Shown: one piece after another, positions 16,649-57,205 of the stretch
How positions within the stretch are numbered: the first letter of the stretch is position 1
Layout of the letters: the number at the start of each line of letters is the position of its first letter
NCBI GenBank assembly: GCA_965113315.1
Contig: OZ220373.1
Length of the DNA: 64,000 nt
From: Podarcis vaucheri
Taxonomy: Eukaryota
Direction: 5' to 3' (one strand)
Made by a program: the position numbers and the translations under genes
Notes under the pieces: model-generated
What the model was told of the DNA's origin: nothing
The model's database searches: none
What the model saw: the letters and a program-made list of their open reading frames with translations, nothing else

Positions 16649-16739
16649 CTCTTCAAATTGAAGCCGCACTTTATTAATGGCTCGGATCCAGCGGGCTCTC
16701 GCAGCGGGAAGGAGGAGAAGTTCATTTTCATCAAGGTGA
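16649..16739 (-). CDS. UNC13B: UNC13B exon (91 nt) with the calmodulin-binding helix: (S)HLDENELLLLPAARARWIRAINKVRLQFEE
   Basis: ttttttgcaag|TCACCTT...GAAGAG|gtaggg; phase 2-0; Munc13 CaM site W-x3-I-x2-V (WIRAVTKVRLQ in mammalian Munc13-2). Confidence 0.93.
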
Positions 16740-17192: not shown

Positions 17193-17486
17193 CTGCCCGG
17201 TGTCTTCGTGGCTTCTTTGGGCTCGTCTGCTTCAGGAGGTAGTTGAGGTGTGGCATGCTCTTTCACCTTCCCCTCTCCTTCCCTGTGCACTTCCTGGGGC
17301 TCATGCTGCTCGCTAGATGGCGCAGGGCCCTCTGTCGGGTGAGGAGGAGCAGCAGGCACCCCTTCTGCGAGCTCGTCCTCATGTTCGGAGCAGGGCACAC
17401 TCCCGTGATATTGGTCCAGCTCACTCAGCTGAGAGCTTCCCTGACTGATGTTACAGGAGGAACCAAACTTACTACTGCTGGCAGGA
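17193..17486 (-). CDS. UNC13B: UNC13B exon (294 nt): (S)[27 protein letters not shown]...EATKTPG
   Basis: ctcacag|TCCTGCC...GGGCAG|gtaggt; phase 2-2; matches mammalian [28 protein letters not shown]. Confidence 0.92.
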
Positions 17487-18817: not shown

Positions 18818-19045
18818 AATCACAGAATCTTAGCAAGGCAGAGTTGGAAGGGACCCCCAGGGGTCATCCAGCCCAACCCCCTAAATGCAGGAATCACAGC
18901 TCAAGAATCCATGACAGATGGCCAGGCAACCTCTGCTTAGAAACCTCCAAGAAAGGAGAGTCCACCAACTCCCCAGGGAGTCTGTTCAACAGCTGCTACT
19001 GTCAGAAAGCTTTCGTCTGCTGTTTCATCGGAATCCCCTTCTGGG
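18818..19045 (-). mobile_element. CR1 LINE 3'-end fragment
   Basis: acagaatc...gagttggaagggaccccc...catccagcccaacccc, same family as 46718 and 62674. Confidence 0.7.
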
Positions 19046-19566
19046 TGTAGAAAAGTTATGCTGCAGGGGACTGAACTGCAACCACTGAAACAGCTTTTGC
19101 TGCCATCTGGGTCTCTCTCCCATCTTAAAACGTGGATGCCTTGTATGTTGTCTAACTAAGCTTCCTGCAAACCAAGAGAGCCCCCGATTTCCTTCCTCCC
19201 ACCATGTCATCTAGAGGTACAAGTCATTTTCTCTCACACACAATTAGGCTACGGAAGGTTAATGAAACTAATACTCAAAGCAGCCCACTCACAAGGACAC
19301 AGCACAAACGGAGAGCAAAGGGGAAGAGTCACTGCAGCCTTTTGGAACACAGGAAACCAGAAGTTGAGGAGGAGAAGGGCAGGAGAGGCTCTGGGTGGGC
19401 AGTCTAGCAACTAGCGTCCACAACTCTACCTACCACTGGGTACTACTAATGCCAAACACAGCCTAGAGGAGTCTGATCTACGAGGTCAGGCATCTACCGT
19501 TACGGCACTTGCATTATAAATGGCTCACAAGTTGGCACCATTTATCATGCTGTTTTGGCTACTGGC

Positions 19567-22500
19567 CTTTTCTTCCTGAGTGGCTCAGGGCTACTCTGCT
19601 CCGCTGGCTGCAGTCCAGTAGCAAGTGTTTCCGTTTCTGGACAAGGGACACTTTCCTTCTGCTCTGCTTCATCCTGAACCTGCGTGGCGCCTTCTGCTGG
19701 TTCCTCCAAGGGGAGCCCAGGAGGCTCACTGGAAATGGCGCTTGGCTCATCTTCCGTTTCTCTGGAGACCTCAAGCTCCAGCTCCTTGTTGGGCACAACC
19801 GGGATGTCAGGCGTGGGGCCATCAAAGCCTTCGTTGCTCTTGCTGTCGGGCTGCTTAGAAGAAAGGTCTGAATCAGCAGCACTGTCAGCTGGCTGCTCAG
19901 AGGCAGAGAGGTTGGGGCTCCCATCAGCACCGGTCACATCCACTGCTTGTTCCTCGGCTTTTGAGACAGCTTCTGGTGCCTTCAAATCCAGTTTGGATGA
20001 AGCCATTGGGGCCACCTCCTGTTTGGAGGAAGCTTTTGGTGTTGGCACATCTGGTTCCTTCTTGAGACCCGCCTCCTTGGCATCTTTCTGCCACGGAAAT
20101 GAGAAGTCCAGCTTCTTTCCAAACACAGCACCCGGAGTGGCCTCTACTTTACCTGCTTTCTCATCACTTCCTCCGCCAAACAGACTTGAGGAAAACTTGT
20201 TGAAGCTGGACACCAGGCCTGGCTCAGGCGCAGGCTTGCTTGCTGAAGGCGGCTGTGCAGAGAAGAAGGAGCCAAATGGCTTGCTGCTGTCTGCAGAAGA
20301 CATGAAGCCGAATTTGGGCAAAGTGGGCATGCTTGGAATTTCAAACATGGGCTTGGTGCTGCTGGTCTCTGCAGGAGCACTGGCTGGCTTGCTCTGGCCA
20401 GCCAAACTGCTTTTCAAGGGAGCAGCTTCTGGGGCTGCTGCGCTGACGGTTAGAGGCTCTTTCTGCTCAGGAGGAAGATCAGGTTTTATTTCAGGGACCT
20501 TTTCCATATCCTGACGGGGCAAGTCACGGGCCTCATCTGCAGCAGCTTTGGGTTCCATCTCCAGGGTCCCAAACGTGTCTGGTGGGCAAATATCAACATC
20601 TGCCTCATTCTTTATAGTTACTTCTTCAGTGGTTAGTGAAGTATCCGTCAGTTCTGGCAGTTTCAGGTGTTCATCTTCCTCACCAACCTTGGGTTCCAGC
20701 TCACATGTACCGCCCAAATCCATTTGGCCAATGTCTGTTTCTCCTGCCGGGCTCAATTGCTCTTCAACAGCAGGGACAGCATCATTTTCTGAGGGCTCCA
20801 CAGGCACTTCACTCTTCTCCTGCAGCACCACCGTCTCAACTGCATCCTGTCCCTCTTGACTACATGGGGCAGCCTTCCCTGCTTCATCAGATGCCAGTAA
20901 GTTTGTGTCCAGCTGCACCACTTCAGGGCCCTGACCCCTACTTGAGTCTAAAGTTTCTGAAGCATTAAGGGAGGGTTCCAGACCATGTCCAGGTCTTCCA
21001 CTGCTTTCAGCTTCCAATTCTGCCGTACATTCTTTTCCCAAACTCTCATCTGCTAAAGCAGAAGGGGCGTCTTGTTTCAAGTCACTGCTAGCTTCTTTCT
21101 CTGTAGGTTCAGCCCTAGAGGTTTGGTCCGGTTGTTTCAAAACGCTGCCAGCATTTGTCCCTAAAAGTTCATCCCTAGAGGCTTTATCTTCTTTTGCGAG
21201 ACCTTTACCAGGAACTGGGCCCACGGCCTCCTTTGCCCTGGAGCTCATTTCCTGGGGTTTTGAAGTGCCTGCGGTCTTCCCTGCAGGCTTTGAAAGGGTC
21301 TCGTCTGTTGCTCCTTTAAAAATGCCAAAGAGATCACTTGTAAATGCTGGAGGAGGCCCAGTGGGCAGGGAGGAAAGGCCGAAAAACGAAGTGCTCTTCT
21401 TTTGGGCACTAGGAGCTGCTGGAGTCTGAGGCTGGGAAAAGAAGCCAGATAATGTTTTGGTTGGTTTCATCTTTGTCATGAAGCTGGAAAACATTTCAAC
21501 TGAGGAATCTAGAACGGATTTGTCAGCCTCAGGCTCTTTAGGTTTCTCCTGCAGGTGAGGTGTTGCTGCTGCCATTTGAGGGAGAGGCCTCTGGCCCCGA
21601 GTCTGCTGCTCTCCGGCAGTATTTGGGGTCCTGTCAGGTTGCTTGGGCTCCGGGGGCTTGACTTCAGGGAGGCTTGGTTTTTCTTCAGGTACAACCTCCT
21701 GCGAAAGGTCTCCAGGAGCAGGCGATGGCTCAAGAGCCACAGGAGTCTCATTACAAACTGGACCGGGCTCTGCCTTTTCAGAAGTCTCGTTCCCACCTGA
21801 CGGAACAAATTCCTTCTCAGAGGGCACCACAATACCGTCACTCTTTTCTGCCTTGTCTTGCAGCTGCTCCTCTGGTTGTGGAATCTCCGGAAGGGAAGGT
21901 GGCATGTCTTCCTGCAGCGTAGGGACCTGAGAGCCAGGATCAGGACAGACTGAGTGGTCTTCCCTATCTGTACCATCATCAGGAGGTTTACTGGCCACAA
22001 AAGGTATCTCTACCTCATTTTTCGCTTCTGAAGCACTTGCCACAGCATGCTCAGCCGCAGGAGTTTTTAGCTCACTTGCCTTCTGCTCCAGGCCATCAGC
22101 CTCCTGCTTTCCAAGTACTGCTTCTACAACACCAGCCGCTGCCTCTTTATCCTTCAAGCCCTGCTGTCTGGCAAGTCCAATGCCAGAGTCAACAGAAACA
22201 CACTGCTTCATAGATGGCTTTGCGTCTGCTTGCTGTTGAGGCGGCCTTCCCAGGTTGCTTGCCTGCTGCTGAGGTGGCTTTGCAATAGTCCCCTTTTCAG
22301 GAGCAGCTGCCGGTGGCTTGTCATCCAGGAAGGAGGGCAGGTTGAAAAAGCTGAAGCTGGAGCTGCTCTGAGGCACGTTCTTCTTTGCGGTGGGCCCTCC
22401 GGAAAAGAAAGAAGGCATCTTGAACAGACCCTCTGCTTCCGGGGGCTTGGCGTTAGGAGCTGCTGGAGCTGGGGCAGGGGCTTTCTCTGGGGCACCGAAG

Positions 22501-25500
22501 AAGGAGGAGAAGATGCTCTTGCCAGCCGGCTGCGGTCCCTGCAGAGGCTTCGAAGGTGCTGCCTGCGACAAGCCAAAAGGCAGGCTGAACCCAGAATCCC
22601 TGGGTGGCTGGCTGCCTTTTCCTGGCTGAGTTTTACCAGGTATGGCTCCTGCACGGCCTTGCGGTCCCGCTGCAACAGCTGGTCCGTGGCCATGCTGCCC
22701 TGGAGAGCGATTTGCCTGGTCCATTCGAGGGCCTGCCTGCATGGGAGGCTTGGGTTCTGCATTCCCTGCGATGGGGATGTCCTCCTTCTTCACTTGAGCA
22801 GCTTCCTTGCCTACTTTCCCATGCTGTACTTCCTTAGGGACTGTGGGCTTCTGGGCAGCTTCCCCACGAGCCTGCTCCACGGGGATTCGAGGGGCAGGAG
22901 TGCTGCTCTTACTTGGCTCTCTGCTACGCTGGTCCGCGTTGTCATTCGGTTTCAGGGAGCTGTGGGTTCCACTCTTTGGCGGAGCAGGGGCTGCATCAAC
23001 TTTGAAAAGATCTCCTATGGAACCAAAGAATGATGAAATGCCTGGGGGCTCCACTTTCTCCTGAGGCATTTTCTTCTCGGCTTCGTTTTTCGTCAGATTT
23101 GGTTGGGGTGCTGGTGGTGGCTGTGGGGCTTTGTTGACCTGCGTTTTAAAGAAATCAAAGAACCCGGGGCCTTGACTTTTATTGGGGGCTGCAGGTGTGG
23201 AGGAGTCTTCTCCCAGGCTGAGAATCTTGAGAGCACTTTTAAACAACGTGCCCTCAGCCTCCGTGGGCGCTTGGCTGGGGGCTGGCTGGGTTTTCTTGGG
23301 CTCATCCTCACCCACTTTGGGTTTTTGTTGACTTGGGAGGGGAGCAGGCTTCACACTTTTATCCAGCTGACTGGTCTTGCTGTCCAGGGGACCCTGGCTT
23401 AGCTGAGAGGAAGACCTCACCAGCTGAGGCCTTTTCTGAGAAATCACTGGCTTTTCATCCCTAACAGACTTAACTAATCTGCCTCTCTCTTTTCTCTCTT
23501 GTTCATGCTCAGTGTGCTGCTGGTTTTGCACATCCTCTCCTGTTTTCCTGGGTGGCGAAGCTGGAAGAGCATCGTTTTTGTGTCCCAACACCACCGGTTC
23601 TCCTTTCTTCACAGCCGTGTCTTCCACTGTCTCATGCACTTCCATACCCTTACCCATCAGGCCACCCAAAGCAGAGAATAAAGATGCAACTTTATTCAGA
23701 GGTGGCTTTTTATCTTCTTCAGTGGTTTTGACTTCTGTAACACTCTGAGATGCCGATGAAGGCTCAGGCTTAGCAGAAGACTGGAATATATGGAAACCAA
23801 ACCGTCTTGACTGTCCACTTTCGGAAACTGTCACAGCAGGGGTCCTGTCCGGATGTTTGGGTAGAGCATCATCTTTTAGCCTCCCACTGGAAGCCACCCT
23901 GGAGTGAACTCTAAGGTCAAGGGTCAGGGGAGGCTCTTCTGAGTGCCACTCCATGTCATTCTCAGGCCTGAAGTCTACTTTGAGTTTTTGAAGTTTGTAC
24001 CCTGAAAAGTCTAAAGGCTGCTCTCTCTGGTAATAAATGGACTCCTCAAACATCTGCGAAAAGGTCTCTAAATTCATGTTCATAAGTTGATCACTTCTCT
24101 GCAGAGCTACAGACAAATCAAGTGGTTTGTTTACAGAGTAATTATCCAATTGCTCCTCTTCAGCAAACCAGAATAACTCGTCTTCATTACCAAGAGGCAC
24201 TTTGAAACCGCAAACGGCAATCATGTCATCTTCCAAGACAGTGCTCTGCAAAATGCTCTGCGGATAATTATAATCCCAGTAGTCTGGGTAGGTGTAAGTG
24301 TCAGGAGTGCAAATGTAGACATACTGCCCAGTGGGGTCGGTGAGCAGGGAATAAACAAACTGGCCGTCCCTGTACATGTAATATCCACAATCGCCATCTT
24401 CCGACGGCCACCACACGCCCTTCTCAAGCAGCACCAGCCAGTCCTGGTACTCCTGGCTATAAGATGAATAGACAAAACTGCCCTCCAGGCTCAAGGACTC
24501 CTGATCAATTAAGGTCCACATATTGCCATCACATGCCGATGAATAGCTCAAGTCCATGGGCATCTCTTCCAAAATATAGCTGCAGTCATCAAATGGAGGA
24601 AGATTTCCATTCAGAGAATGCGTTGCCCACATTTCAGTTTCTTCTAGACCTAAATCTTGTAAGTCTAACTGATCAAACGATTCGTGTGACATGACACTGA
24701 AATCCATGCTCAGGGCATCAAAATTGGCATTTGACCTCCAATCCACGACATTGGCATTGCCATCTTTTTTACACAAGTTCACTACGGCATCACTGGAGTC
24801 TGGCCATTCCAGAAACTCAGCCAGTGGGACAGAATTCTGCTGCAAGACGTAGTAAACGGGCAAGGAAACCTGGTGGGCATTGAGAGAAAATGCTCCTGCA
24901 TCATATTCCCAGTCAAAGCTAGAGTGGCTCCTTGTTTCCTCAAGAGTAAGATGCTGCTCTGAGTGGCCATACAATTTAGCATTCAGCAAAGAGGAATTGA
25001 GAAATTCATTTGACCTTTCGTTGAGAACTGCTTGATAAATATTGGAATCCATAGGTTGTCTATAAAGAGTCGGCTGCCCCGATAAGTCTTGTATCTTTGG
25101 CTGTGAGCTTAAAGCATTCTGAGAGGGGGGGTGCCAAGGGACGGGACCATGTCCGTTGTCCCTTTTGCTCAGTTCTGGGTGAGGAAAATGACCATTCGCC
25201 TTCGCAGTCTCAGTCACTGCCTCCTCCGCTTTTTCTTTTGGCCTCTGCATGAAGTTCTTTATGAAGCTGCCCGTCTCCGGTTTCCCCCCAGTGCTTTCTT
25301 GGGGACCAGGAGTCACATGTGAGCCAGCAGACTTGTCACCAGAACTAGTCTCTTCGCTCCTCTCAAAAAACTTCATTATGCCCAGAGAGCCTGGTTTTGC
25401 CTTATCTGGCATACTTTCGGTCAGGTTTTCACTTGAAGCAAACCTAAATAATCCGGAAAGTAAGCCAGCTGATCTGCTCTTCTGGCTGTCCGTTTCATTT

Positions 25501-28368
25501 TTAGCATTTGACTCTTCCGTGTGGGTTATGTGGTCTGAAGACGCCTGCCGGAAGAGGCCCGAGAGCAACCCCTGCCCTGGCTGTGGGGGCTTCTTCGGAG
25601 TATCATCCATTACCTGGTCCTCTCTGATTCCACCAGGAACCACTGGCTGTCCTGCTGTGGTATTTAAGTCAGGTTCTTTTGTGGGGGCTGTCAGCTCCCC
25701 CCTGCATTTGGAATCTTTGTGGTCCAGAGCACCCATGCGTTTGGTATCATGATCCATGTGTGCAATTTTTGAAGTGCCTGAGGCACCCTGGTCTTTATCT
25801 CCATGTTTTAGTGCACCCAGACCATCTTCTTTACCGGTTTCTTTCTTCCTCGTTGGCTCCTCTTTTCTCTGCGGTGCCTCAGGAACTGCCTGAGACTTTG
25901 ACGAGTCCATTTTGGCAGCTTCCACGTTGCTGCTTTTGTGACCCGCTTCAGCATTTGGTGGCTTGCCACTAAAACTTGGTGGGGCAGTTTGATCTTTTGA
26001 AGCTGTCAGGTTTTCCACAGAAGCAGCTTTCAAGAAGGAAGTGAAAATTCCTGGCTTCTCTTTGATGTCCTGCGGTGGTTTGTCTGAAAAGCCAAAACCG
26101 CTCAAAAAGGGAATCTGGAGCTTACCGGTGAAAGGGAAGTTGGGTTCGCTGCTTGCGGAGCTTGTTTTCCTGACATCATCTTCAGAACGGTGACTTTTCC
26201 CCAAGCCCGGTGGTGGCTCCTTTGGCACAGTTTCGGTAGCAGAAGAAGGGAGCAGCAACTGGCTGAAGGATTTCTTAAGTGGGCTGAAAAAGCTCTCAGA
26301 TGGTTCCCCCTGCTCCAACGGCAGAGCGTTACCAGTCTCCTTCTTGGCTTCACTTGGCTTGTTTTCTGGCACTTTCCCTGCAGGTTGTGGATTTCTTGGC
26401 ATGTCTGGGTGTTCTTTAACAACTTTATCTGGCTGACTTGTGGCCTGCGGCGGCACATCAGAAGCCTTCTGTGGCCCACTTGGCTGCTTGGGAACAGCCA
26501 GACTCTCAAAACTGGCTTTCAAGCTAAAAGAACTAACGGAGCTCGACAGCTTGCCAAAGATGGAGGAGACGGGGCCGCTGCTTGCGCTCGCTTCTGCCTC
26601 GCTCTTGCTCGTTTCGGGAGGCGCAACGTTGGTGGGTTTTGTCGCGTTGCCTTCAGCTTCCTTCCCACCTGCCTTGGCTTCAGAAGCACTGGCATGCGTG
26701 GCTTCCACCTTCACAGCCTCCTCCTGTTTTGCAGTCTCTTTTTTCGGTGCTTCCTTTTCGGAGAAGATTTTCAAAGGGTTGAAGATGCCCAAGACGGAGT
26801 TCACGACTGAGCTGGGGTCCAGAGAAGGGGGCGGAGCAGCGTTTGCTGAAGCATCGTGGACACTTGGAGGAGCCTTGTCGTCTCCCGCCGTCTTTTCTGG
26901 GATGCTGGCCTTGGCATCACCGGCTTCTCGCTCACGGCTACTCTGGGTCACAGAAGGGGCAGTTGCCGTGGGCAACCTGGCATCCGATTTGCTCTCTGCT
27001 TTCAGTTCCGGAGAGGCACCCTCAGACTTAGGCTTACTTGAAAACAGACTTATGATGCCTCCCTCGGGTTGACCAGGGGCTTCAGGTTTCTCTGGTGTGG
27101 GAGATACAAGTTTTTCAACTGAGGCTGTTAAGTGCTTTGTTCCTGAGCCCACTTTTTCGGTGAAAGAACTAAATAAGGAGCTGACCGTGTTCTTCACCCC
27201 AGACAAGTCTGGCAGTGCCTCTGTTATGCCTTTGCTGCCCTCGCTCTCCTCTGCGGCAGAAGCGGCTGGCTTTGCCTGTTCCAAAGGGGCACTTTCCTCC
27301 GCCAGCTTATCAGCCCCGGCCAGTTTGGGAGAGGCACCATCGCTTGCATTTTTGCTCGCAGGAAGGGTTTCAAATTTGCTAATCTCCTCCTCTTTTTCAG
27401 CTAAGTATTCAGACACAGTTTCAACTAAGCACTGCAGTTCATCCATTGTGTCCACATATTCTTCCGTTGGCTCTTCAACAGGAGAGAGGGTCAAGTCTTG
27501 CTTAAGAAAGCCGTGCTTTCCTCCTCTCATCCTATGTGAGTTTTTGTCCCTTGGTAACAGGGATATGGCACTTCCAGTATGGGCGTCAGTAAGGTCTCCA
27601 ACATGGCGAACACTGGATTCACGCCATGCTTGGGAAAGTATTGCTATTTCTTCCATTTCATCATCATCATCTGAAACTGGGGAGTACAGGAGTATGCTGG
27701 ATGAACAGCTGCCAAACTCTTTAAGGGCACCCAATGGCACAAAAGAGTGAGCTGGCTGTTCTGAATGGATCTCATTTTCACCATCAAAATGGACTGATCC
27801 TGAGTCATGCTTTGCGCGTTGGTTAGCGGACAACTTGCCACTCTTGACTAGAAGGCCATTCTTGTATGGACGCAGAACTGGATATTCCGGTAACTGTTCT
27901 TCACTTTCAATGGGGCTGCTGCCCCATTTCTCAGTTTCATCATAATCAGGATATAGGTTATGTTCAGTTCTTGCTTTAATGCTGCCTGATGAAAATCTCC
28001 GGTTACCACTGCTTTGCAGTACAGTTCGCTCGCATTCTTCAAAATTGTTATATCTCAGCTTCTTCTTTCTTCTCCTGTCTATTGTGTCATATTCCTCTGG
28101 ATAGCAAGGAACATCGGGATGTCCTGATTCTGGGCAAGGCTTCCGTGAGTATCTTGCTCTTTCAGGATGGCCAAAGTTCTCCCTTTTTGAGAGCCTCGGG
28201 CTCCTTCGTCCCTGTGAACTTCTAGTCCTGTGACTTTTTTCTAAAAAATCTTCTATTAACTGTTTGCCTAATTCCTCATAGTTCTCTTCACACTCTTCCT
28301 GTTCTTGGCCAACTTCGTAATCAAATGGAATGATCCTGACTTTCCCATTGCTAACTAAAGATCCTGGT
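19567..28368 (-). CDS. UNC13B: Giant alternative coding exon of UNC13B (8,802 nt, 2,934 codons; 3' boundary tentative)
   Basis: Stop-free 2,992-aa ORF 19545..28523. An ~80-nt polypyrimidine tract ending ...acgtatcag|ACCAGG gives a phase-2 entry matching the upstream exon. The proposed donor AAAAG|gccagt at 19567 is phase 2 and matches the downstream exon. Confidence 0.85.
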
Positions 28369-28814
28369 CTGATACGTGTGGAGAGGGAAAATATAAGAAG
28401 GACAGAAGGGCAAAGAAAAAAAGGAAAGAGCAGGAGGGGTGAAAAAAGAGCTTTAAACACAAAACTTGCAAAGGAGCATTTCATAAAGACCAAATGATAT
28501 CGTGAATCACATGCAGAAAGCATATTAAAATATCATAACAACGAACCCATTTATTAACACGAAATGTTAGGAATCTCTCTTTTACTATTATTGCAGCTAA
28601 ATAGTAGGGTTGTAAGGGTAGGAGAGCATGAAACATGTATACCACTGTTATGTATACTATAAAGTGATATATGGTATGTTATTTATAAGCTTCTGTTAAG
28701 AACAGGAATTGCAAATTAAAAATGTCAATAAGCAGCTACCTAAAATGTTACAAGTCACTTTCTGGAGCGTCTCAACGGAGTTTATCCCACAGAAAGCAAT
28801 GATGGCCACCAACT

Positions 28815-29055
28815 TAGATTAAGAGAGGACTAGACAAATTCATGGGGAAGAAGGGCTATCAAAGTCTACTAGCCATGAGGCTCGGCTCTGCCTCCACGGT
28901 CGCAGGCAGAGGTGCTTCTGAGCCCCAGGAGAGGAGAAGAGGGCTCTGGAGCTCAGCTCCTCCTTCTGAGCTTCTCCCAGGCATCTGGTCAGTCCCTGTA
29001 AGAACAGGATGCTGGAGAAGGAGGCCACTGGCCTGATCCAGCAGGACTCTTGCCA
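28815..29055 (+). mobile_element. Old CR1 3'-tail fragment
   Basis: ggactagacaaattcatgg...gctatc...aacaggatgctgg...ggcctgatccagcagg; related fragment at about 10430-10580. Confidence 0.55.
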
Positions 29056-29685: not shown

Positions 29686-29811
29686 CTATCAGACACCTCT
29701 AGTGAGTGCCGGCTCTCTAATGACAGCTGGCGGCTTGTCATTTGACTTGACTGTGATGCAGATTCCAGGTCAGTTCGGCCACTCACAGTGGAGTCTAAGC
29801 TATGGCGCCTT
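29686..29811 (-). CDS. UNC13B: Candidate 126-nt cassette exon: (R)RRHSLDSTVSGRTDLESASQSSQMTSRQLSLESRHSLEVSD
   Basis: Pyrimidine-rich acceptor ...ccttgcctttttgaag|, donor GATAG|gtgggt; open in phase 2-2 as the flanking exons require. Confidence 0.55.
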
Positions 29812-30363
29812 CTTCAAAAAGGCAAGGAGACGTTGGGAGACGTGAAGGACAAGAGCAACACATAAGGTTCAAACAGCTTAGTATTGTAAAATGGAAAGTG
29901 AAAGCAAGTGTGTGGCGTGTGGGATTGGGGGTTGCGCAATTGTGCCAGGAGTCTGGATGGGTGCGAGACAACTGAAGCCAAATCCCAGCAAGAGGGGCAT
30001 CCTAAGGGGCAGCACGCCTTGCAATCTCAAGTGAAACTGATCCACATATTGTCAGTCACTCTTGGTCACTCAGGGCGACAACGTGGGGATCCCAAAATTC
30101 CACAGCAAAAAGAGCTGCTTACCACCAGCTCTGCTTTGCAAGGAGGATGCTCAGCTGCAAACCTTTCTTTGCTCCCATTGGGCTATTCTGGGGGGGACTC
30201 TGTCTGGCAGCTGTTGCTCACTGCTCTTCTGTCACCCCTGAAGCAGAATGGCTTTTCTTTTAAAAACCTGACCACAAGAGAGTCTGAAGCAGCCAGCCTC
30301 AGTCTTGGTAGCTTACAGTGTGTTGGGGGAGAGAAAACGCCCTGGTTCCAAGGGGGTACCTAC

Positions 30364-30586
30364 CTGATGGCTGCTCGTTCGTGGTAATCCAAATCATAGC
30401 CATGCAGGGACTCCCCACAGCACTCTCGGGGGACCCCCTGCTGCTGCAGGCGGGAAGCCACGGGGAACTGGTGCACCGAAGCATTGGGCTGCGAGGTGGT
30501 GTGGTACTGGGGAGGAATGCTGTTGCTGGTCTCACTGCGGTAGTCGCTGTCTCGGTCATCCACAGCACTATCGTGGTCTTCAAAAG
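30364..30586 (-). CDS. UNC13B: UNC13B exon (223 nt): [40 protein letters not shown]...[11 protein letters not shown]
   Basis: cttctag|CTTTTGAAG...GCCATCAG|gtaggt; phase 1-2; contains the conserved Munc13-1/2 motif [18 protein letters not shown]. Confidence 0.95.
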
Positions 30587-47097: not shown

Positions 47098-49012
47098 TTG
47101 ATATTTTCTGAAATTAGGAGGTGCATTTCCATGCACGAAAATATAGGGAATATTTTGTGACCATGGCTTTTAATATAAAGAAACTAAAACACATACACCC
47201 CTCTTATTCTGGGCTTCTCCATCAGTCTCAGCCAAGGAATGATGGGAGTTGTAGTCAACCACAGCTGAAGGGCAAGGCATCTCCCCCGACTCCCTGTTCC
47301 ATCATGCAGGCCTTTCGCAGTGGCTGCGGAGAGCCCAGCGCACAACTGGATGGAGCCTTTGCAATGAACTGCAAAGCTTGGCCCTCTGCCCACTTGCCAC
47401 CCACAGGCCTAGTGAGGATGATCTCCAGCCCTGCAGGGCTTAGAACTGCGCAGCTCAGTTGCACTAATGCAGTGAACTGCAAACCCTTTGCCTCTTCTGC
47501 TCAGTCGCACATGGACTTTAATATGCAATTAAGTCAATGTCCTTCTCCAAATCCTGTGCAATCCAAATCAGTTAAAAAGGGGGGGGGGATCTCCCCACAC
47601 AAAAACTTCCTTTTGTAAAGTTTCTATGTAAACCACTTAGAATTTTTCATTCCTATTAAGTGGTATAAAAATTTAATAAATACTTGAATAATGAGTTAAT
47701 ACAATGCCACTCAGTGATATTAGAAAAGTAATTAAGCTACTAGATATTTAATTTGCTTGTCCAGCAACAGGGTAATTAACAATTCGTAATGTTAACCTTC
47801 TTGAAGAGAGCCTCTAATCAGCCTAGTGGATAAGCAACCGGCAACATGTAATACTCTAAATACCAAGTCTTACCAGGTTCCAGTGGAGGAGAGCAGTTCA
47901 GATATACAAAGCCCTGGAGATTGGCACACCACTTAGGAAGGGAAAGCTGGATCTGTTCTGTTTTCTTTTTGAGCATTTAACAAAAGCAACAGAACTGCCC
48001 TCGCCCCTTCCTACGCCCTGCATCCAAATATCAGCACCACTTGGCAGGAGTTGCAGCTGAGATCCCCACAGCCCCACATCTCCCCAGGGCATGGGGAAGG
48101 GCTGGGAATAGGGGCACCCTGGCCTGCAGAAGGAGCCATCTGGAGCTTCTGGCTTGACAATGGAAGCATCTGACAGTGACCCACAGTTAGAAACAAATGG
48201 CAGCTTATCTCAAATGAGCAGCGAGCAAAGCTTGGCTTACAGTTGTGATTTGGAGGAAAATATCCTGCAAGTGCTGCTTCACACATCAAGGGTAAGACAG
48301 GCGGTCTCGCTTCTGCGCTCCAGTTGGGGGCAGAGTTGGGGGCTGAGCATGGGAGCGCATGCTGCTCACAGGAAACCACCGTTTATTCCATGCTGGGCTA
48401 CAGAGAAGCATGAACCAGGCCACTTATGCTGATGCAGAATCAAGGCCTCTAGAACGCTTCCCGCTTTGCATGCAGAACATTGTGATTTGATTTTGGATGT
48501 TATACTCCCATTTCCACCAGAAAACTCAGTCTTGTCCACACACTGAAAGACACCTGGCCCAAGGGGTCCAGTTTTTTGAGCAAGAGAGCGGCCGTTCTAG
48601 GAGGCAGTCCACTTTGGCTCCCATTGCCATGCTACACAGGGGGGCCCTGCAGTGGCCAACCGGGGCTTCATGCCTGACCAGACTTGCAAGGCCAAGAATG
48701 CTGCTGGCAGCAAGGAAAGGGCTTGGCAAGCGAGGCTTCTGCCTCTGCCGCACAGGCCCCCTTGAACCCAGTTGGCTGCACTGAGACATGGCACTCTCCA
48801 AACCACAGAACGAAGGACAGGCAAACACCATGTCTGAATGCAACCACCAAGAGAGACCCAGACAGACAGGGCTGGCACAGGGATTGTTATTGCCAGGGTT
48901 CTGAAGTACTGACAGCTCAGCAAACACACTTTGTTCTACTGGAGAAAGAAAGCAAAGCACGACAACCTACTGAAGGTCTGAAATACGGAGTGACTGAACA
49001 TTTCTCACTTAC

Positions 49013-49070
49013 AACACTGGGAGGCAGCAGTGGGCAGCGGCTGCTTCTGGACCTCTTCCGCAAACGAATG
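49013..49070 (-). CDS. UNC13B: UNC13B exon 7 (58 nt): HSFAEEVQKQPLPTAASQC
   Basis: cctttag|CATTCG...CAGTGTT|gtaagt; phase 0-1; similar to mammalian ...QRKPLPTAAAQC. Confidence 0.9.
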
Positions 49071-49411
49071 CTAAAGGGGGAAATGAGTAGAGATGAGGAA
49101 TGCAGTAAAACGATTTTCAGCAGACAGGGGCTATCTCATTTAGGGGCACTTTTCTCCTCTTCCATAAAACCAAACACTCCCCTCTCCCAAAGAAACATTT
49201 GCCCTGTTTCATGCCAAAGCTTCCGGGCACCTGCTCCAGGGTCCCCCTTGGTTGCTACAAAGCCCCAAACACTTTCCCCCAAGTGTTTGCAAGCCGAGTT
49301 TGATTCCTCCTGTGCAGCCCTGCCTAGATTTGGAACAGGACTGGAAAAGAAAGCAGGAACTGGGGCTCTGGTAGTGCCAAACTTTGTTGTACTGTTTTTA
49401 TACTGTTTTAA

Positions 49412-49821
49412 GTGAGAGCTGGACCATAAAGAAGGCTGATCGCCGAAGAATTGATGCTTTTGAATTATGGTGCTGGAGGAGACTCTTGAGAGTCCCATGG
49501 ACTGCAAGAAGATCAAACCTCTCCATTCTGAAGGAAATCAGCCCTGAGTGCTCACTGGAAGGACAGATCGTGAAGCTGAGGCTCCAATACTTTGGCCACC
49601 TCATGAGAAGAGAGGACTCCCTGGAAAAGACCCTGATGTTGGGAAAGATGGAGGGCACAAGGAGAAGGGGACGACAGAGAATGAGATGGTTGGATGGTGT
49701 TCTTGAAGCTACTAGCATGAGTTTGATCAAACTGCGGGAGGCAGTGGAGGACAGAAGTGCCTGGCGTGCTCTGGTCCATGGGGTCACGAAGAGTCGGACA
49801 CGACTAAACGACTAAACAACA
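49412..49821 (+). mobile_element. RTE-BovB LINE, 5'-truncated 3' end
   Basis: ESWTIKKADRRRIDAFELWCWRRLLRVPWTARRSNLSILKEISPECSLEG..LKLRLQYFGHLMRR..SLEKTLMLGK...VHGVTKSRTRLND* with a (caa) tail is the classic BovB C-terminus. Confidence 0.93.
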
Positions 49822-50396
49822 AAATCTTTGCTGTGAACCGCCCTGCGCTTTGGGTAGGCAGAACATAAATGGTTTAAATTAAATAAAAATGCAAGGAAGT
49901 ATTGAGGGCGCAGGGTAGCACCAGAACAGTGGTCTTCCGCCTTCTCAGACCCAGGGACCAACCTTAAAGCCACAGGTGCATCGGGGAGCCATTTCCTTCT
50001 GTATTTGCTGTGCCCCACCTTAGATCAGGCCACTTCTTGGCAATGGGTCCCAACCCACCAATAGAAGACCAATGGCCTGGAAAGCTATACAACAGGCAGG
50101 AATCCTGTCCCCACCTCTCCCACCTGCATGCATGCACTCTGTAGAGATGACCACCTTGAGATTTCTTTTTAGCCAATGCAGCCCCAGGATTCAGTGGGAT
50201 TTTGTTTTGTTGCTAAACGGGAGTTTCCCTTGGGGTCTTGGTTACCTCCTCCCCCCCCCATTCTTCCCCTGTATTTCTAATAAATAACTGCAGAACCAAA
50301 GAACGCCTTCAGTTAGCCTGTCACTTTCAAAAGCGGTGGCTCGTCTTGCATTATCCAATGGTGCAATGGAAAGTCAGCCTGCACAGCTGGCTGGGT

Positions 50397-50565
50397 AGGA
50401 GGGTGTTCCACAGGGCGGGCGCCACCACCAAGAAGGCCCTCTGCCTGGTTCCCTGCAACCTCCCTTCTCGCAGGGAGGGAACCGCCAGAAGGCCCTCGGG
50501 AGATGGACCTCAGTGTCCAGGCTGGGGGTGGAGACACTCCTTCAGGTATACTGGACTGAGGCCAC
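50397..50565 (-). mobile_element. L2-type LINE fragment
   Basis: Near-identical to 8397-8567. Confidence 0.7.
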
Positions 50566-50903
50566 TCACTTGCCACGTCCGATATCCTCTCATGTAAATG
50601 AACAAATGCTCTCACCCCCCACCAGAAAGGGCAGCCAATTCTCCCTGGCACCTGGCCTGCTATGCATGGGGAAGAACAGTCCTAGACTAGCCTTCCTCCT
50701 GCCTGTAGGAATGTCTGCTCAATGGGCAGCATTCCAGCATAGGGGCACCCGGCTGAAATCACAAATTGTGCAATCCAGAGCCGGGTATACCACCTGACCT
50801 TATCCAGATCCCCAGAAACCCCCTATGGGCATTTGGCCAGACTCCAGCAAGAGGTCCCAAGGCAGGAGTGTGCATGGAGCACAGCAGAGCAAAGCATACG
50901 CAC

Positions 50904-50977
50904 CTCATCATCTTCCTCCAAGGAGTTTATCTGCTTTAACTTCTGAGTCCAGTATTTGGCTTCCTCTTCCGGGATGT
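50904..50977 (-). CDS. UNC13B: UNC13B exon 6 (74 nt): DIPEEEAKYWTQKLKQINSLEEDDE
   Basis: cttgcag|ACATCCCG...GATGAG|gtgcgt; phase 1-0; in ORF 50823..51014(-). Confidence 0.94.
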
Positions 50978-53684
50978 CTGCAAGACAGAAGAATAAGCAG
51001 GCGCCTGCTCCCATCTCCGTTCCCCAAAATATATTTTATTATATGCATATTCTGCTCCGACATGGGGGCCCCAGAAGCTTCCCACCCAATTCCACAGCTG
51101 CCCAGCCTCAACCATGCCACAGCATCGGGCGTCCCAGAACATCCATAGGGCCAGGCATGTACTTTTAAATTCAGAGCATGCTTACGCAGAACAGCACATG
51201 ACCAGGGATGCTGGTTCAATTCAGAATAGAAACAAAAACCACACACACAGCTGTAAAAACAACACGGCTTTCTTGGGCTCGTTGAGAACAGAAGGAATGG
51301 TGGACAGACCCTTGCGAGCTGCACAGTCAGATTACAGAAACAGAACTGTGTCAGCAGGTGAGGCAGACGCACATTGCCAAGAGCCAAGGGGAAGGAGGAG
51401 CATGACTTTCTGGCCAAGGGTGGAGGCAGAGGAGGGTCAGAACGATGAGGGCAGCAGCAACAGCAGGCACGGTGTCAACAAGCGCTAATTAGGTTCAATT
51501 AATGTTTCATACTTTCCCCACTTTTCAGATCAGACTGAGAAACAGGAGGCAGTAAAGCACAACCAACTGCGGAGGCAGTCTCTTTGAATGGAAACCCCGG
51601 AAAACATCACAAATACAGCAACATAAAAGTTAAGTCTCTTGATGGCTTTGCCAATTCCAGAATGTTTGGAACTCTGATTAAGGGGGGAAAGGAAAGGCAG
51701 GGAGCCTGGAGATGAAAAGAGGAGAACACAAAATCCATGGCCCAAGGGGAAGCATGCCTGTGCCTCGAGCAGGTGATGGAACCATGCGTGCCTGGAAAAT
51801 CTCCCAGAAAACTCTGGCAGGTTAAGTTGGAAGCAGAGTGCTAGGCCAGGAGAGACCTCTTGCACTCTGCAGGTACCAGAAGGAGGTTTGGGACTGCACA
51901 GAGCTCTGAAATGTCCCCATTAACCAAGGCGCCTCTAACTCAGTCATCCCCAACATGGAGGCCTCCAGATCTGTCCGACTACAACTCCCACCAACCCCAG
52001 CCAGAACAGAGCTAGCTTCTGACATGCCCAACAACACAGTCAAGAACTCTGCTTCCAAAAAGGGATGGAAACCTCGTCCTCAGACGTGTCCCTGTCTTGC
52101 ACTGCCCAGGCAGAGCGGCAGGGGACTGCCAAGGGCCTGTCACATCCTGGCTTCCGGGAGCCATTCCCATAGCATGCTTCTGGGCATCTTATCCGAGATA
52201 AGACGACTCATTTCGCAAACACCACCACAAACATGCAACAGCTCCACACCAGGTCATGATATTCTCTCTGTCATCAAAGAAAGCCTTGAGCAACTTTGGA
52301 AATGGCTTGTGGGAGAGCTTTTTAAGCCATCTGAACCCAAAGCTCGCTCCATGAATATAAACATGCTGAACCAAACACACAGGTATACCACTTCTTCCAA
52401 GTCCATTTTATCACATAGGAGAGGAGCGCTTTCACCTGGGAAATGAAACACAAGATTTCTAAATATATCTCCCCCCTGGGGGGGGGGATGGTGGGATATT
52501 GCTGTAGAGAGAGAAGTGATCTCATACTCAAAGTTAAAAGGAAGGACAGTGACCAAGGTGGGACCCACAACGCTAAAGCGCCTTTGATACTGATGCAATC
52601 TTTATCCTGAGAGCACATCATTCCTGCACCTGCAAGGAACCACGAAAGGCACATGGCCCTGGGATGCTGAGGCTGGAAAGGGTCCTACTTTTTGTCCCGG
52701 AGAGCCCATCACGGCATTCACTGGTTCTCAAACTCCTTAAGCAGAAGTAGCCTTCTTGTATTTCTTTAAGCATGAAATTATAATAGTATCTGAAAAGCAT
52801 CATTGCATGTTCTTGGAAGATATGGCTCCCCTGAAACAGCAGAAACCTTTCCTTGAGAGGGAGGCACACAATTCAGACTATTTACAACTTGTGCACCGTT
52901 CTGAACAGCTAAGAGGGCGAAGAATGTCCCACTAAAGGAATCATTTTTTAGCCAAACTATGCCAGCTAAAGCCTGTGTGGCAACAGCCGTTACACTGTAC
53001 AAAGAAATAGTCCAGTAAAACGGGCATCCTGGGTGGCAGCCTCAGCGAGGCTGCTTTGGGGGGTGCATTTCCTGGCCTGCAGTTTGGACCCTGAAGTGGG
53101 TTGGGGGGGGATTACAATGGCCGCAGAGAGGAAGCAACACAAACCAAATTTGTGCCCTCTCTCCATCTCAACGTTTGCCTGAAAGGCCCCATCCCCCCTC
53201 CATAGACACAGGCAAAGCCCCAAATAGGAAGAGTGGACTGGCCCTCCTCAGAAAGGACACTACTGTTACTTGCATTATTTGCAAAATCCTCCGTTCAGAA
53301 TTACCAATCATACTTTACAAAGAAATTCAGAAACTGTATAATAGGGGCTGGACTAAAGGACCTTCAAGTTTCCTTCTATTAGTTGCATTCAGCAGTCTGA
53401 TGACTCTGAATAAAGATGACTGGTTGCTAGGCAATGTGAAATAAGCACACTCCCCCCCCCCCACTTGTGGAAAATGCTGTGTTGCAAGAAAACCTCAGGG
53501 CTCCAAAAATGTCCTCCCATATACAGCACCGTAAGCCTGATTTAATTGGAACGAACTCCTGAAAGGGAACCACCACTAAGAAAAGATCCACACGGTGGAC
53601 CCGCATCAGGGCAGCAAGAGGGAAGAGGAGTCTTTGAGCTTCACAGAGGATGATGGGGGACGGCAGAAAGTCATTTGCGCTCAC

Positions 53685-53808
53685 CGAAAGGCAACTCAAA
53701 TCTTGTATCCAACAAAATCTGGTGAGGTGTTGGGTTTTTGGTGCCACAGACCTCATGGCCCTTCATCATGACCTCAGCTTCCAGGGTAGACCACTCCCCA
53801 GGGCCCTC
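53685..53808 (-). CDS. UNC13B: UNC13B exon 5 (124 nt): [41 protein letters not shown]
   Basis: ctttccag|GAGGGC...CCTTTCG|gtgagc; phase 0-1; matches the Munc13-2 C2A C-terminal extension. Confidence 0.95.
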
Positions 53809-54888
53809 CTGGAAAGAGAAAGGGCATCAGCAACTTCACCAGAAATATCTCCCCATCCATCTTCCCACTTTTCTCACGTCTGTTATTTTATCGCCCCATA
53901 CGCAGCAGCCTCCAAAGTGCTGAAAGGCTTGTGCATTTAGATAATTTATAAAACACACATCACAAAAAACTGTGGCCACATACAAAAAATCAATGTAAAA
54001 TTAAAAACTAAAAAAACTTTTAAAATGCATCAAATCAATTTGCAAAACCGTCTGACTAGGTCCCCCACTCCTGCAAGAGGGAATTGATATGGCAACTCCA
54101 AACCACATCAGGAAATGGCCTGAACTTTTGGAGGAATTCAAGCTTCTACAGAAGATGTCAGACCACCAAAGTGCTGTTGCTGCTACAATTTATTTACTGC
54201 CACTTTTTGGAAGTCCAAACATCCCCAAAGCAGTAAATCATCTATTAAAAACAAAATATGTATACTGTAGAGAACAAGCCGTGTGCTGCTGAACAAAATC
54301 CTGCTCATTTGCTGTGGCAGAATTACAGAACGGCTTTCACCTGCGGACTCAGAGCTTGACAAACCATCCTCTGCAGTCAACAGAAACCCTCTGGGCCTAA
54401 ACGGGCTCTGAGAAGAAGAACCAAGAGGTCTGCTTTAATTCACGGGCCTTTATTTTAAAAAAAAAAAAGAACAGCAGCATTTCCACTTATAGCCTTAGAA
54501 GACAGTTCAGAGTGTGGTGTAAGATTACTTTTCCTTGCATGCCTTAAGCGGTCATTGTGCCTGGATCAGTTGTGACTGAAGTCAAGAGGTGAGGGGAGCT
54601 TTAGAAAAGGATTCCATAATTTCTGGGTCATGCAAGAATGCTGCGTGGAAGAAGTATGCAACATTTCCATCTCCTGGCTGGGTCACAGGAGCAGTCCACA
54701 GGAGCAGGAAGTAGAGAGGGGCCTGAAAGACTCCACATGTTGCCGGACTCCAACTCCCATCATCCCAGCCACTCATGGATGATGGCAACTATGATCCAAC
54801 ATCATGATGGATACCAGACAGACGCAACCAAACGGCACAAGGAAAGGGGACTAAAGAGCATCTCTCTCGGCTCTGAAGGTCTACTGAC

Positions 54889-55006
54889 CTCATCCGACTG
54901 CCGGATGGCCTTCAACTCAATCCACGCTGTCCCAACCATTGTGTCCCAGATCAGCCCTTTGTTCCATACTTCCACAATCAAGCCCAGGTCCAGGCGGCTG
55001 ATCTCG
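54889..55006 (-). CDS. UNC13B: UNC13B exon 4 (118 nt), C2A: [39 protein letters not shown]
   Basis: tttgcag|CGAGATC...GATGAG|gtcagt; contained in ORF 54802..55236(-). Confidence 0.96.
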
Positions 55007-56351
55007 CTGCAAAGGAGGAAAAGAGACACAACACATAAGCAGCTGGGGGGAAACTGGACCCACACCTTCAGTTTTTTTGCAATGTCCATTCTGATTGCTT
55101 CCCAACTGACTGCCTTGTCCCTGTTTTGATCTGAATCACAACCGTCAAGCCAGACCAAGAGAAGGCTCTCCTGGGATCCCCCAGACAGGAGGAGGATGAC
55201 CAGCCTCTCCCTGGCCGCCAGCCTCAGCACAGACAACTGCAGAGATGCACTTCGGCCACTAGAGGTCTATTCAGGACCACAAGTCAAAGCCTGCTGGGCT
55301 TGACTGCAAGATGCTCCTCCAGCCAAATCTCAACGCACAATTTAAAGTTTCCTCTGACAAAGGACTCTGCGACATGGCAGCCTGAGCCACAGTAGATTGC
55401 TCCACTTCTTTTAAAGCCCAAGTTCACAGTCCTGACAGACCCCTTTCTCCCCCTGAGATCATCCCTGCCCCTTATTTTGTACCTAAGCTTGCACATTTGC
55501 AAGGAATCACCACCCCTTTAAGCAGACCAAGGGCAGGATCCAAAGAAGCAGATCCGCTAGTGCAAGAATTTCTGCTTGCTCAATGCAACTTCTACCTCCT
55601 CTCATCGCTCTACACCCCACCCCACACCCAATCTGCTCCAGAATAGATTTACGGGGGGGGGGGGAGGCGAGGGAGGGGCAGTTCTGTTGCACAGCCCAAA
55701 TGCCCTACGCTAGCAGATCTGTTTCACTGGATACTTCCCTAAGAGCATGTGCTGTTGGGAAGGGGATGATGTCTGTGTGGAGAGTCCCGGGCAAGGTATT
55801 ACAAAATGCAACATGTGTTTTCAAGCAACACCTTTGCAACTTCCCAATAAACAGGCAGAGAAAGGCGAATGCTTCTGCTTTCAGTGTTTTTGTCTTTTTT
55901 AATTATAAATTACTAATATCAACAATTTAATATGCATTTACGGTAAATCTCAAAGGAAAGCAAAAGTTTTCAGAGTACCAACAATATTAACATTCAAAAG
56001 AAATACAATACTTACAATGCTATTGAAAGGAAAGGGACACCATATACCATAAATACAATCATATCCAATCTTTCGCTTTGAAACCCCCCCCCATAGCATT
56101 ACTTTTTCAATACAATATGGTGTTTCCTCTCTTGTCTCTTTCCCAAGATAAAAAACATGTTTAAAGTGCCTAATTTCCCAATTTCTCCCATCTTATCCTC
56201 CCTGTATGGAATTTAACATAAATACTCGCTTTCCCGTAACTCAACTGGTGGAACTTCCTTGCCCCCAGATGGCTGGGGGACAAAACTAACACTTAGCAAC
56301 ACGGCGCTCCCATTATTCCAGGTGTGATCCTGACCCACAGCATTCACTTAC

Positions 56352-56451
56352 AAGAGGAAGTCTTGCTCCCAGCACGGCTGGTCCCCTCGAACGGCAACCG
56401 TGGTGCTCTTCACATTTTGCACCTTCAGGGTCACATACGTATTGAATTTAT
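56352..56451 (-). CDS. UNC13B: UNC13B exon 3 (100 nt), C2A: [33 protein letters not shown](F)
   Basis: ctccag|ATAAATTC...TTCCTCTT|gtaagt; near-identical to the Munc13 C2A sequence. Confidence 0.96.
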
Positions 56452-57205
56452 CTGGAGAGAAAGCAGAGTTGTTTCACCTGAGGGTAAGTGTCTCAAACTC
56501 CTCCTTGCCAACACATGGTATTTGGTGGAAAGAAAACGACTCCCACCAGCTGCACTTCAGCAGAGCAAGGAGATGACAGGAGAGCAGGGGCAGAATAGAA
56601 GTTTCCACTGCCACCTCCTTGGTCTTCATGATCTGGCCCCAATGACTGGGAAAGGCTTCACACAACAAGAAACACTAGCTATGAGTTGAGAACTGCAAGG
56701 AGTCAAGTGTGGAAGCTGCTCATTGCCTGGAAGAACGATGAAGCTCAGTTTCCATTGAAATGTAAGAAATCAAGCTGCTTTCATTGCTGATAGCAAAGTG
56801 GAGCTGCCTCAGTTTAATACTCCAAGGCTCCCAAGTGTGGTTGCCTTACAGTCCTGGAACTTCCTTATATCTTGGAGCTTTGCTGAAGCCACTTCAGAAA
56901 CCCTCAAAACTTTTCAGTGGCCAAGGTCAGACCAATAACTGGGCACAGCTTTATTTTAACTTGTGAATTGCCCTGAGCTCTTCGGATGAAGGGCGGTATA
57001 TAAATCTAATAAATTTATTATTGTTATTTTGTCCAACTATTTTGGATTTTAGAAGGAACTGCATAAGCAGGGAAGAAGCAGGCCAGACACTCAGAAGCTA
57101 GAAAATTCCTGCCATGCACCACAGCAGAGAGCCAGCCAAGAGGCAATTGCAAGAACATGGGTGTCAGCAGGTAGACTTGTTGGGCAGAAGAAAATCTGCG
57201 CTCAC

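Follow-up and report, generated by a model that had tools for sequence, protein, structure and literature searches.

A giant conserved cassette exon of UNC13B with PxDLS motifs and predicted amphipathic islands: a candidate photoreceptor form of Munc13-2

The window analyzed here is the whole 64,000-nt stretch of contig OZ220373.1 from the Podarcis vaucheri assembly GCA_965113315.1. On its minus strand, a stop-free frame of 2,995 amino acids (19545–28532) encloses both a giant exon (Table 1) and the span of hydrophobic motifs described in an initial annotation. The gene is UNC13B (Munc13-2), and the exon is a giant optional in-frame cassette that has been kept from fish to mammals. Ortholog gene models depart from the exon at one common point, a skip junction (30364–17486) joins the flanking exons without it, and an open frame of about 2,500–3,100 codons is retained from gar to mammals. 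By orthology to UNC13B/Munc13-2, the cassette follows the exons of the C2A arm and precedes the ubMunc13-2 exons further downstream, the second of which bears a motif that we take to be the ubMunc13-2 calmodulin site. The five upstream C2A-coding exons indicate that the giant exon belongs to the ubMunc13-2 arm. The C2A-bearing ubMunc13-2 shares the gene and the flanking exons with the giant-exon form and corresponds to its exon-skipped product. A Pfam scan of the whole frame returned no families at E ≤ 1.

Two other assignments were considered and rejected. According to the accessible text of PMC5379939, the N-terminus of bMunc13-2, encoded by the same gene, is an alternative ELKS1-binding segment that provides RIM-independent active-zone anchoring. 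This segment of about 600 residues has a separate promoter and replaces C2A, as far as the available sources describe it, whereas the giant exon is a cassette internal to the gene, located after C2A, and is not the bMunc13-2 first exon. In addition, the conserved KRP tail of the frame was not counted as a protein motif because it coincides with the GC donor. Read-through past this donor reaches a stop at 19545–19547. Among 120 matches, 46 end at the KRP tail; since many of these are bare open reading frame calls, they were not counted for a read-through transcript.

Table 1. Features of the UNC13B locus in the window (aa, residue number in the giant-exon frame)
Feature	Position	Strand	Details
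Five upstream exons coding the C2A-bearing N-terminus	48972..56455	-	tblastn; PF00168 on orthologs
Constitutive UNC13B exon upstream of giant exon	30364..30584	-	coding part matched; 5' edge approximate
Giant UNC13B cassette exon	19567..28368	-	8,802 nt (2,934 codons); both ends in phase 2; acceptor and GC donor read
Near-invariant acidic helix-like block and short motif ahead of it	27369..27494	-	block = aa 358–388
N-side array, 13 of 30 conserved islands	25083..27215	-	aa 440–1150
ALPS-grade 18-mer 1	27156..27209	-	aa 442–459; moment 0.47, 3 charged, 8 S/T/G
Conserved acidic/aromatic core	23898..24965	-	aa 1190–1545; identity 0.54
Strict PxDLS motif 1	24546..24560	-	aa 1325; Px-DLS in 30 of 31 aligned rows
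Strict PxDLS motif 2	24111..24125	-	aa 1470; 29 of 31 aligned rows
Two PxDLS-like variants	23910..24017	-	aa 1506, Phe for Leu; aa 1537, without Pro
C-side array, 17 of 30 conserved islands	20091..23801	-	aa 1578–2814
ALPS-grade 18-mer 2	23649..23702	-	aa 1611–1628; moment 0.51, 2 charged, 5 S/T/G
ALPS-grade 18-mer 3	22989..23042	-	aa 1831–1848; moment 0.44, 3 charged, 6 S/T/G
ALPS-grade 18-mer 4	20163..20216	-	aa 2773–2790; moment 0.46, 2 charged, 9 S/T/G
GC splice donor, followed within 200 nt by 10 UAG (Musashi-type cluster)	19367..19566	-	background 1.8 ± 1.6; 10 reached in 1 of 319 tiles
Constitutive exon downstream of giant exon	17193..17486	-	
Following exon with calmodulin-site-like motif	16649..16739	-	junction 16739–17193

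Between the two arms of the exon lies a conserved core with the PxDLS motifs. At least two strict PxDL(S/T) motifs are present in 119 of the 121 proteins compared, and the chance of two strict motifs in a shuffled exon was 0.018. AlphaFold2 confidence is low around the motifs, consistent with conserved PxDLS/T motifs in a disordered region; for the core, mean pLDDT was 31.6 with the sequence alone and 39.7 with 33 sequences. Residues 1358–1408 are weakly predicted to form a helix and a beta-meander. A Foldseek search with this low-confidence model found nothing at E ≤ 0.001 and is not informative, a PDB sequence search with the core gave no matches, and the ESM Atlas gave no usable match.

The initial annotation had described recurrent Ser/Gly/Phe-rich hydrophobic motifs on both sides of this core. 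All 17 listed strings (one occurring twice) can be read in the minus-strand translation, and their recurrence exceeds chance: 57 of the 75 flank Phe lie no more than five residues from another Phe, compared with 23.5 ± 5.2 in shuffles (n = 2,000, maximum 39). An unbiased scan on conserved bulky hydrophobics identified 30 islands of at least two positions, leaving 34 singleton positions out of the count. These islands contain 66 of the 75 flank Phe and are indeed placed on both sides of the core (13 on the N-side and 17 on the C-side). Clade-weighted identity to 20 non-squamate orthologs, from gar to mammals, is 0.60 for islands and 0.21 for linkers. Among residue types, conservation is highest for Phe (0.65), contrary to the lack of a conserved Phe pattern that would have spoken against the motifs. 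One listed motif, at about residues 654–661, is confined to sauropsids. The N-side array holds an internally repeated island type in three copies (residues 828, 988, and 1023), and copy number varies among species, with one type having three pattern matches in the lizard and up to 15, for a similar pattern, in a teleost. Such plasticity fits avidity on a surface. The linkers are rich in P/A/E/K/Q, with Phe clusters evenly dispersed among them.

The spacing within most islands is helical. Averaged over orthologs, the power spectrum has its maximum at 100 degrees, and 18 of the 30 islands peak at 85–115 degrees (null mean 6.6, maximum 13), as is typical of ALPS motifs; 12 islands lie outside this range, and a strand-like period (at least 140 degrees) is found in four. 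In a panel of 16 proteins, of which 14 could be parsed and were pooled, lags of 1, 3, and 4 between hydrophobics are overrepresented (1.36, 1.68, and 1.60, respectively) and lags of 2 and 5 are not (0.91 and 0.89). The suspicion of a low hydrophobic moment was not borne out: the best 11-mer value is 0.50 compared with 0.38 in within-island shuffles, and nine of the 30 islands are individually at p < 0.05, where adjoining windows overlap and the orthologs are related.

The chemistry of the islands is less uniformly that of ALPS motifs. Pooled over the 30 islands, the polar face is 45% S/T/G, as in ALPS motifs, but also 25% charged (15% K/R and 10% D/E), unlike their uncharged face. At least one K/R lies in or beside 25 islands, and at least two in 12. 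Hydrophobics per turn range from 0.9 to 1.7 (mostly 1.3–1.6), compared with about one in ALPS motifs. The latter form helices of about 18–40 residues (19 in Piccolino and 38 in GMAP-210), whereas the median island has nine; the exceptions are the four of 30 islands that pass an 18-mer ALPS screen with loose thresholds of our own. The ALPS motifs of ArfGAP1, GMAP-210, and synapsin I and the ARF1 N-terminal helix share with the islands a bulky hydrophobic face and an S/T/G-rich polar face. In most cases, however, the islands are shorter, more densely hydrophobic, and Lys-bearing, which places them between ALPS motifs and the ARF1 helix, which has 12 residues with two hydrophobics per turn and binds most membranes (PMC6164224, accessible text). 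The same text reports that curvature selectivity is lost on adding Lys or paired hydrophobics. As judged from sequence, the islands are ALPS-like in predicted chemistry, and most would not be classified as ALPS motifs. The earlier count of about 25 ALPS-like motifs stands for a conserved, mostly amphipathic set with an S/G/T-rich face, but is not supported for curvature sensors, as the islands are mostly short and K/R-bearing and 26 of 30 fail the screen.

Tissue use of the exon was taken from published tables. In the ASCOT table (PMC6952364, supplement file 3, row 53), the matching mouse exon, identified by size, frame, and neighbors rather than by sequence alignment, reaches a PSI of 94 in rods. 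Its PSI is 0 for nine bulk tissues (brain, muscle, and heart at 0%), and no other measured column exceeds 14. Co-expression with RIBEYE/CtBP in rods would be in line with this PSI, a transcript-level value for an exon paired by size and position. Cochlear hair cells have ribbons, yet their PSI is only 1.3 (PMC6952364). Junction-only PSI decreases from 0.92–0.96 in control retina to 0.54–0.75 when Msi1 and Msi2 are knocked out in photoreceptors (PMC9509328, Supplementary Data 12). Both traits of Musashi-activated photoreceptor exons were thus found, namely a UAG cluster past the donor in the lizard and lower inclusion without Msi1/2 in the mouse. Inclusion of the matching mouse exon is rod-enriched and partly Musashi-dependent, as these tables indicate. 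The Musashi-dependent Unc13b exon named in PMC7948980 was considered as the giant exon and rejected; it appears to be a separate 39-nt exon (primer table, PMC4991804). RNA runs from relatives of the lizard, of unspecified tissue, showed only skipping joints, with exon depth equal to intron depth. Run X1 had skip joints only, no splice joint was found in run X5, and runs X23 and X21 showed the downstream joint and scattered low coverage. In a search of sequencing runs, none carrying the exon was recorded as RNA.

The isoform reported at retinal ribbon synapses is ubMunc13-2 (PMC7660176, accessible text). According to the accessible part of a review (PMC11536687), Munc13-2 is placed at the ribbon base, photoreceptor RIM2 is without the Munc13-binding domain, and loss of Munc13-2 lowers the b-wave by only about 30% and leaves membrane-associated vesicles unchanged. 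These knockout phenotypes suggest that its role at the ribbon base is accessory. Loss of Piccolino strips nearly all rod ribbon tethers. The accessible portions of the Munc13-2 literature describe two variants, ub and b, and no mention of an insert of about 2,800 residues was found in them; a literature search found no paper on the protein of the giant-exon isoform.

Piccolino, a ribbon-specific truncated Piccolo, is the closest comparison. It comes from a different gene than UNC13B, and no Piccolo was found among the exon matches with names shown (many matches are unnamed). It is a giant disordered presynaptic protein of the retinal ribbon with several RIBEYE-binding PxDLS motifs (accessible texts of PMC13394108 and bioRxiv 10.64898/2026.04.28.721253), as is proposed for giant-exon Munc13-2. 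A Piccolino amphipathic helix binds SV-like liposomes (PMC13394108, accessible text), whereas the helices of the giant exon are predictions. The available sources describe for Piccolino one ALPS motif and seven periodic PxDLS motifs at one end; in the giant exon, about 30 short helices flank two strict and two to three variant PxDLS motifs on both sides. Unlike Piccolino, the spliced giant-exon form runs on into C1-C2B-MUN. Given the rod inclusion of the matching mouse exon and the UAG cluster past the lizard donor, the retinal "ubMunc13-2" is likely a form of about 4,400 residues with the two modules of Piccolino, PxDLS motifs and amphipathic membrane anchors.

We give roughly even chances to a model in which a Munc13-2 enriched in photoreceptors and about 4,400 residues long docks RIBEYE/CtBP through its PxDLS core, and about 30 short amphipathic helices in two disordered arms hold vesicles weakly but collectively near the release site. 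It draws on the conservation and periodicity of the islands, their plastic copy number, the recurrent PxDLS motifs, the rod inclusion and Musashi dependence of the mouse exon, and the Piccolino parallel. Speaking against it are the shortness and charge of most islands, the share of them with no helical period, the tether loss without Piccolino, the mild effect of Munc13-2 loss, the low inclusion in hair cells, the use of the human exon in tissues without ribbons, and the skipping joints in relatives' RNA. The PxDLS motifs would bind the B-domain cleft of RIBEYE (CtBP2) or CtBP1 and provide an anchor at the ribbon base that is independent of RIM. Each island may fold into a helix of 1.5–4 turns on membrane contact, inserting Phe/Leu into packing defects with assistance from flanking Lys. 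A single island would be too weak, and avidity would make the array strong, while about four long uncharged islands may act as true ALPS motifs. Vesicles caught by the arms could then be handed to the C1-C2B-MUN priming module, a handover that would speed refilling and would not be required for priming. A bolder reading, which we consider possible but doubtful, is that the Munc13 of photoreceptor ribbon synapses differs from ordinary ubMunc13-2 and is a primer-tether chimera of about 500 kDa in which the Piccolino design (direct RIBEYE binding and about 30 amphipathic vesicle beads) evolved independently. Direct binding through the PxDLS motifs would then account for recruitment without RIM. 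The GC donor, weak yet conserved and controlled by Musashi, would toggle between the full form and a read-through product that stops six codons on, is without the priming domains, and would be a pure tether like Piccolino.

Several alternatives to the collective-tether model were weighed. That the frame is a chance pattern or untranslated is extremely improbable; the inclusion junction is absent from four RNA runs of lizard relatives, but the ~2,500–3,100-codon frame kept from gar to mammals and the hundreds of mouse retina reads that span inclusion junctions already contradict this explanation. It is improbable that some 25 canonical ALPS sensors form an array that selects ~40-nm vesicles by curvature. 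The S/T/G share of the polar face and four 18-mers near the length of the 19-residue Piccolino ALPS motif would agree with such an array, but not the high failure rate in the screen, the short median length, the frequent Lys, or the paired hydrophobics.

It is unlikely that the islands are short protein-binding motifs that fold on partners such as active-zone scaffolds, Rab effectors, or endocytic adaptors, making the exon a protein scaffold rather than a membrane binder. Simple lipid binders usually need less sequence conservation than the islands show, and in many islands the sequence has been retained position by position for about 450 million years (mean identity reaching 0.8–0.9); the strand-like islands also point this way. 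However, S/G-rich polar faces are common to unrelated islands, and copy number has expanded freely in teleosts. The Phe islands could also be aromatic stickers that make the arms phase-separate or co-condense with RIBEYE and vesicles, an explanation that can coexist with the collective-tether model and that we rate as quite unlikely. The even dispersal of Phe clusters among the linkers would suit it, and multi-PxDLS Piccolino promotes the phase separation and transition through which RIBEYE ribbons form (bioRxiv 10.64898/2026.04.28.721253, accessible text). Against it, stickers would not need helical i+3/i+4 spacing, the net charge of the arms is negative (−45 in the lizard), and FG dipeptides number only 13 among 75 Phe in the lizard (3–18 across the panel), unlike nucleoporin-type FG repeats. 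Of the beads-on-a-string proposal in the initial annotation, the multivalent vesicle-capturing array fits the retinal context, whereas the sticker option fits less well with spacing that is helical rather than FG-repeat-like.

If the retinal isoform includes the exon, past work on retinal "ubMunc13-2" concerned a protein nearly three times the size of the skipped form, and retinal Munc13-2 would bear an unexamined anchor and membrane-binding array. The matching human exon, likewise paired by size, frame, and neighbors, is also used without ribbons, at 21–24% in cerebellum and 11% in skeletal muscle (PMC6952364). As inferred from this use, about 8.5 kb of human coding sequence would matter for the interpretation of retinal and cerebellar variants.

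The roughly 25 ALPS-like motifs described in the initial annotation lie within a single 2,995-aa frame on the minus strand, that of a giant cassette exon of UNC13B (Munc13-2). Among the matches listed, Zootoca vivipara UNC13B matches the exon core at 96%, and core orthologs occur in squamates, turtles, birds, mammals, amphibians, sturgeon, and gar (120 matches listed of 301). A full-library search gave 65 representatives; among the 10 looked up, the named ones are UNC13B-type or uncharacterized proteins of vertebrates, some of which are teleosts. The five exons of the C2A arm are located upstream, and the constitutive exon that precedes the giant one has a phase-2 end. With 8,802 nt (2,934 codons), the giant exon is skippable in frame. 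Full-length ortholog models exit it at the position of the lizard's GC donor; if this donor is unused, a stop follows six codons on. The short basic tail at the open-frame end, kept from sturgeon to marsupials, is probably an imprint of this donor. In an RNA-type contig set of one lizard relative (unspecified tissue), the skip joint has a depth of 181, no inclusion joint was found, and the exon depth (17–19) equals that of introns. Short interspersed repeats attract most flanking-intron RNA reads. Some models from birds, geckos, and snakes include a small optional exon upstream, whose joint to the downstream exon is present in X1, an RNA run of a lizard relative.

Features of the giant UNC13B exon and its surroundings (window positions)
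Feature	Position	Strand	Remark
Giant exon	28368-19567	-	acceptor at 28368
Non-canonical GC donor of giant exon	19560-19570	-	donor at 19566
Small optional exon	about 29686-29813	-	
Optional-exon joint	29686-17486		
Skip joint	30364-17486		
Interspersed repeats	18840-18990; 28880-29045		
Acidic helix-like block and the motif preceding it	27369-27494	-	block at aa 358-388
Tyr/Trp-rich block	24309-24461	-	
Acidic Trp/Phe motifs	24700-24940; 24150-24500	-	

In mouse Unc13b, an 8,367-nt exon (2,789 codons) lies between exons of 235 and 315 nt; the same table also gives an alternative end that lies 594 nt beyond (PMC4991804, supplement file 3). These sizes are consistent with the giant exon, since the mammalian upstream exon encodes 78 aa and rodent inserts span 2,669–2,831 aa, varying with the acceptor; the mouse and human exons were matched to the lizard one by size, frame, and neighbors rather than by alignment. 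The PSI of the mouse exon is 0.91–0.94 in retina and 0.79–0.96 in photoreceptor-less retina, values that counting on-target reads can overstate, and inclusion counts are lower in the latter (1,543–4,127 vs. 6,293–8,517; PMC4991804). For the human counterpart (8,550 nt), a table without a retina column gives 21–24% for cerebellum, 11% for skeletal muscle, and 4% for testis. The mouse exon is listed as Musashi-activated (0.92–0.96 to 0.54–0.75, FDR 2e-12; PMC9509328, Supplementary Data 12). A UAG cluster in the 200 nt past the lizard donor (10 vs. 1.8 ± 1.6) suggests that the lizard exon is under the same control.

All 17 motifs listed in the initial annotation were found in the translated frame, and the hydrophobic pattern proved conserved. 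Across 31 exon sequences, 30 of them picked for spread from the 120 listed matches, 30 islands have an identity of 0.60, compared with 0.21 in linkers. Phe accounts for 16% of island residues, Ser for 17%, and Gly for 10%, and Phe clustering, at 57/75, exceeds that in shuffles (23.5 ± 5.2). One island type reaches up to 15 copies in teleosts, with 10–15 on the N-side of four teleost-type orthologs (P0170, P0146, P0155, and P0166), whose proteins reach about 5,000–6,000 aa. Most islands are predicted amphipathic helices. The hydrophobic moment is 0.50 for the best 11-mers against 0.38 when shuffled (nine of 30 individually significant), the power spectrum is maximal at 100 degrees, 18 islands peak at 85–115 degrees (null 6.6), and a strand-like period occurs in four. 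Hydrophobic spacing pooled from 14 of 16 panel proteins is enriched at lags 1, 3, and 4 and not at lags 8–11, indicating that the helices are short.

The ALPS assignment itself held only in part. S/T/G make up 45% of the polar face, but charged residues make up 25%, the median length is nine, 25 of 30 islands carry K/R, and only four passed our screen of 18-mers with loose thresholds (a moment of at least 0.35, at most three charged residues, five or more S/T/G, and no Pro inside). Curvature specificity is lost on adding two Lys or with paired hydrophobics, according to a review (PMC6164224). The islands are mostly not ALPS; they are fairly described as an array of short ALPS-flavored amphipathic helices, about four of which are of ALPS grade. 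Among the rival readings, protein-binding motifs are unlikely, condensate stickers somewhat more so, a strict ALPS array slightly more so again, and chance very remote.

Between the two arms, strict PxDLS motifs number two in 113 of 121 proteins, three in six, and one in two, with variants at aa 1506 and aa 1537; at least two arise in 1.8% of shuffle trials. RIBEYE is bound by Piccolino, the ribbon-specific truncated Piccolo, through multiple PxDLS motifs (RIBEYE-PxDLS preprints), and a 19-residue Piccolino ALPS binds SV-like liposomes, with avidity proposed as the working mode of weak tethers (PMC13394108). By its sequence, the giant exon likewise has both PxDLS and amphipathic-helix modules. 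The C2A-bearing isoform ubMunc13-2 is that of retinal ribbon synapses (PMC7660176); it is located at the ribbon base, RIM2 of photoreceptors has no Munc13-recruiting domain, and the b-wave falls by about 30% when ubMunc13-2 is lost (review PMC11536687). In the reading that we favor, and consider about as likely as not, the giant exon would anchor this priming factor to RIBEYE/CtBP at the ribbon base and serve as its multivalent vesicle-holding extension. Several points argue against a main role: nearly all rod tethers disappear without Piccolino, knockout of Munc13-2 has mild effects, the exon is skipped in hair cells, and it is used in cerebellum and muscle, which have no ribbons and in which the partner could be CtBP1.

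The UNC13B gene, the long isoform in database models, and the exon as a row in splicing tables are already known. In the open-access literature, covered mostly as titles and abstract openings, no paper was found that deals with the protein of this isoform or with the PxDLS motifs or islands in it; Unc13b is absent from the main text of ASCOT and PMC9509328, and Munc13/Unc13 from the available portions of two RIBEYE-PxDLS preprints. The giant exon makes a standing ribbon-synapse question directly testable.

Few parts of the exon are as well conserved as the Tyr/Trp-rich block between the strict PxDLS motifs. This block is weakly predicted as a helix plus beta-meander, had no family or fold match in Pfam, PDB-sequence, or fold searches (the last with a low-confidence model), and may be a small new domain. 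The acidic helix-like block is near-invariant; the motif preceding it, degenerate in eutherians, resembles the PP2A-B56 LxxIxE docking consensus. The acidic Trp/Phe motifs in the core resemble LIR or adaptor-binding motifs.
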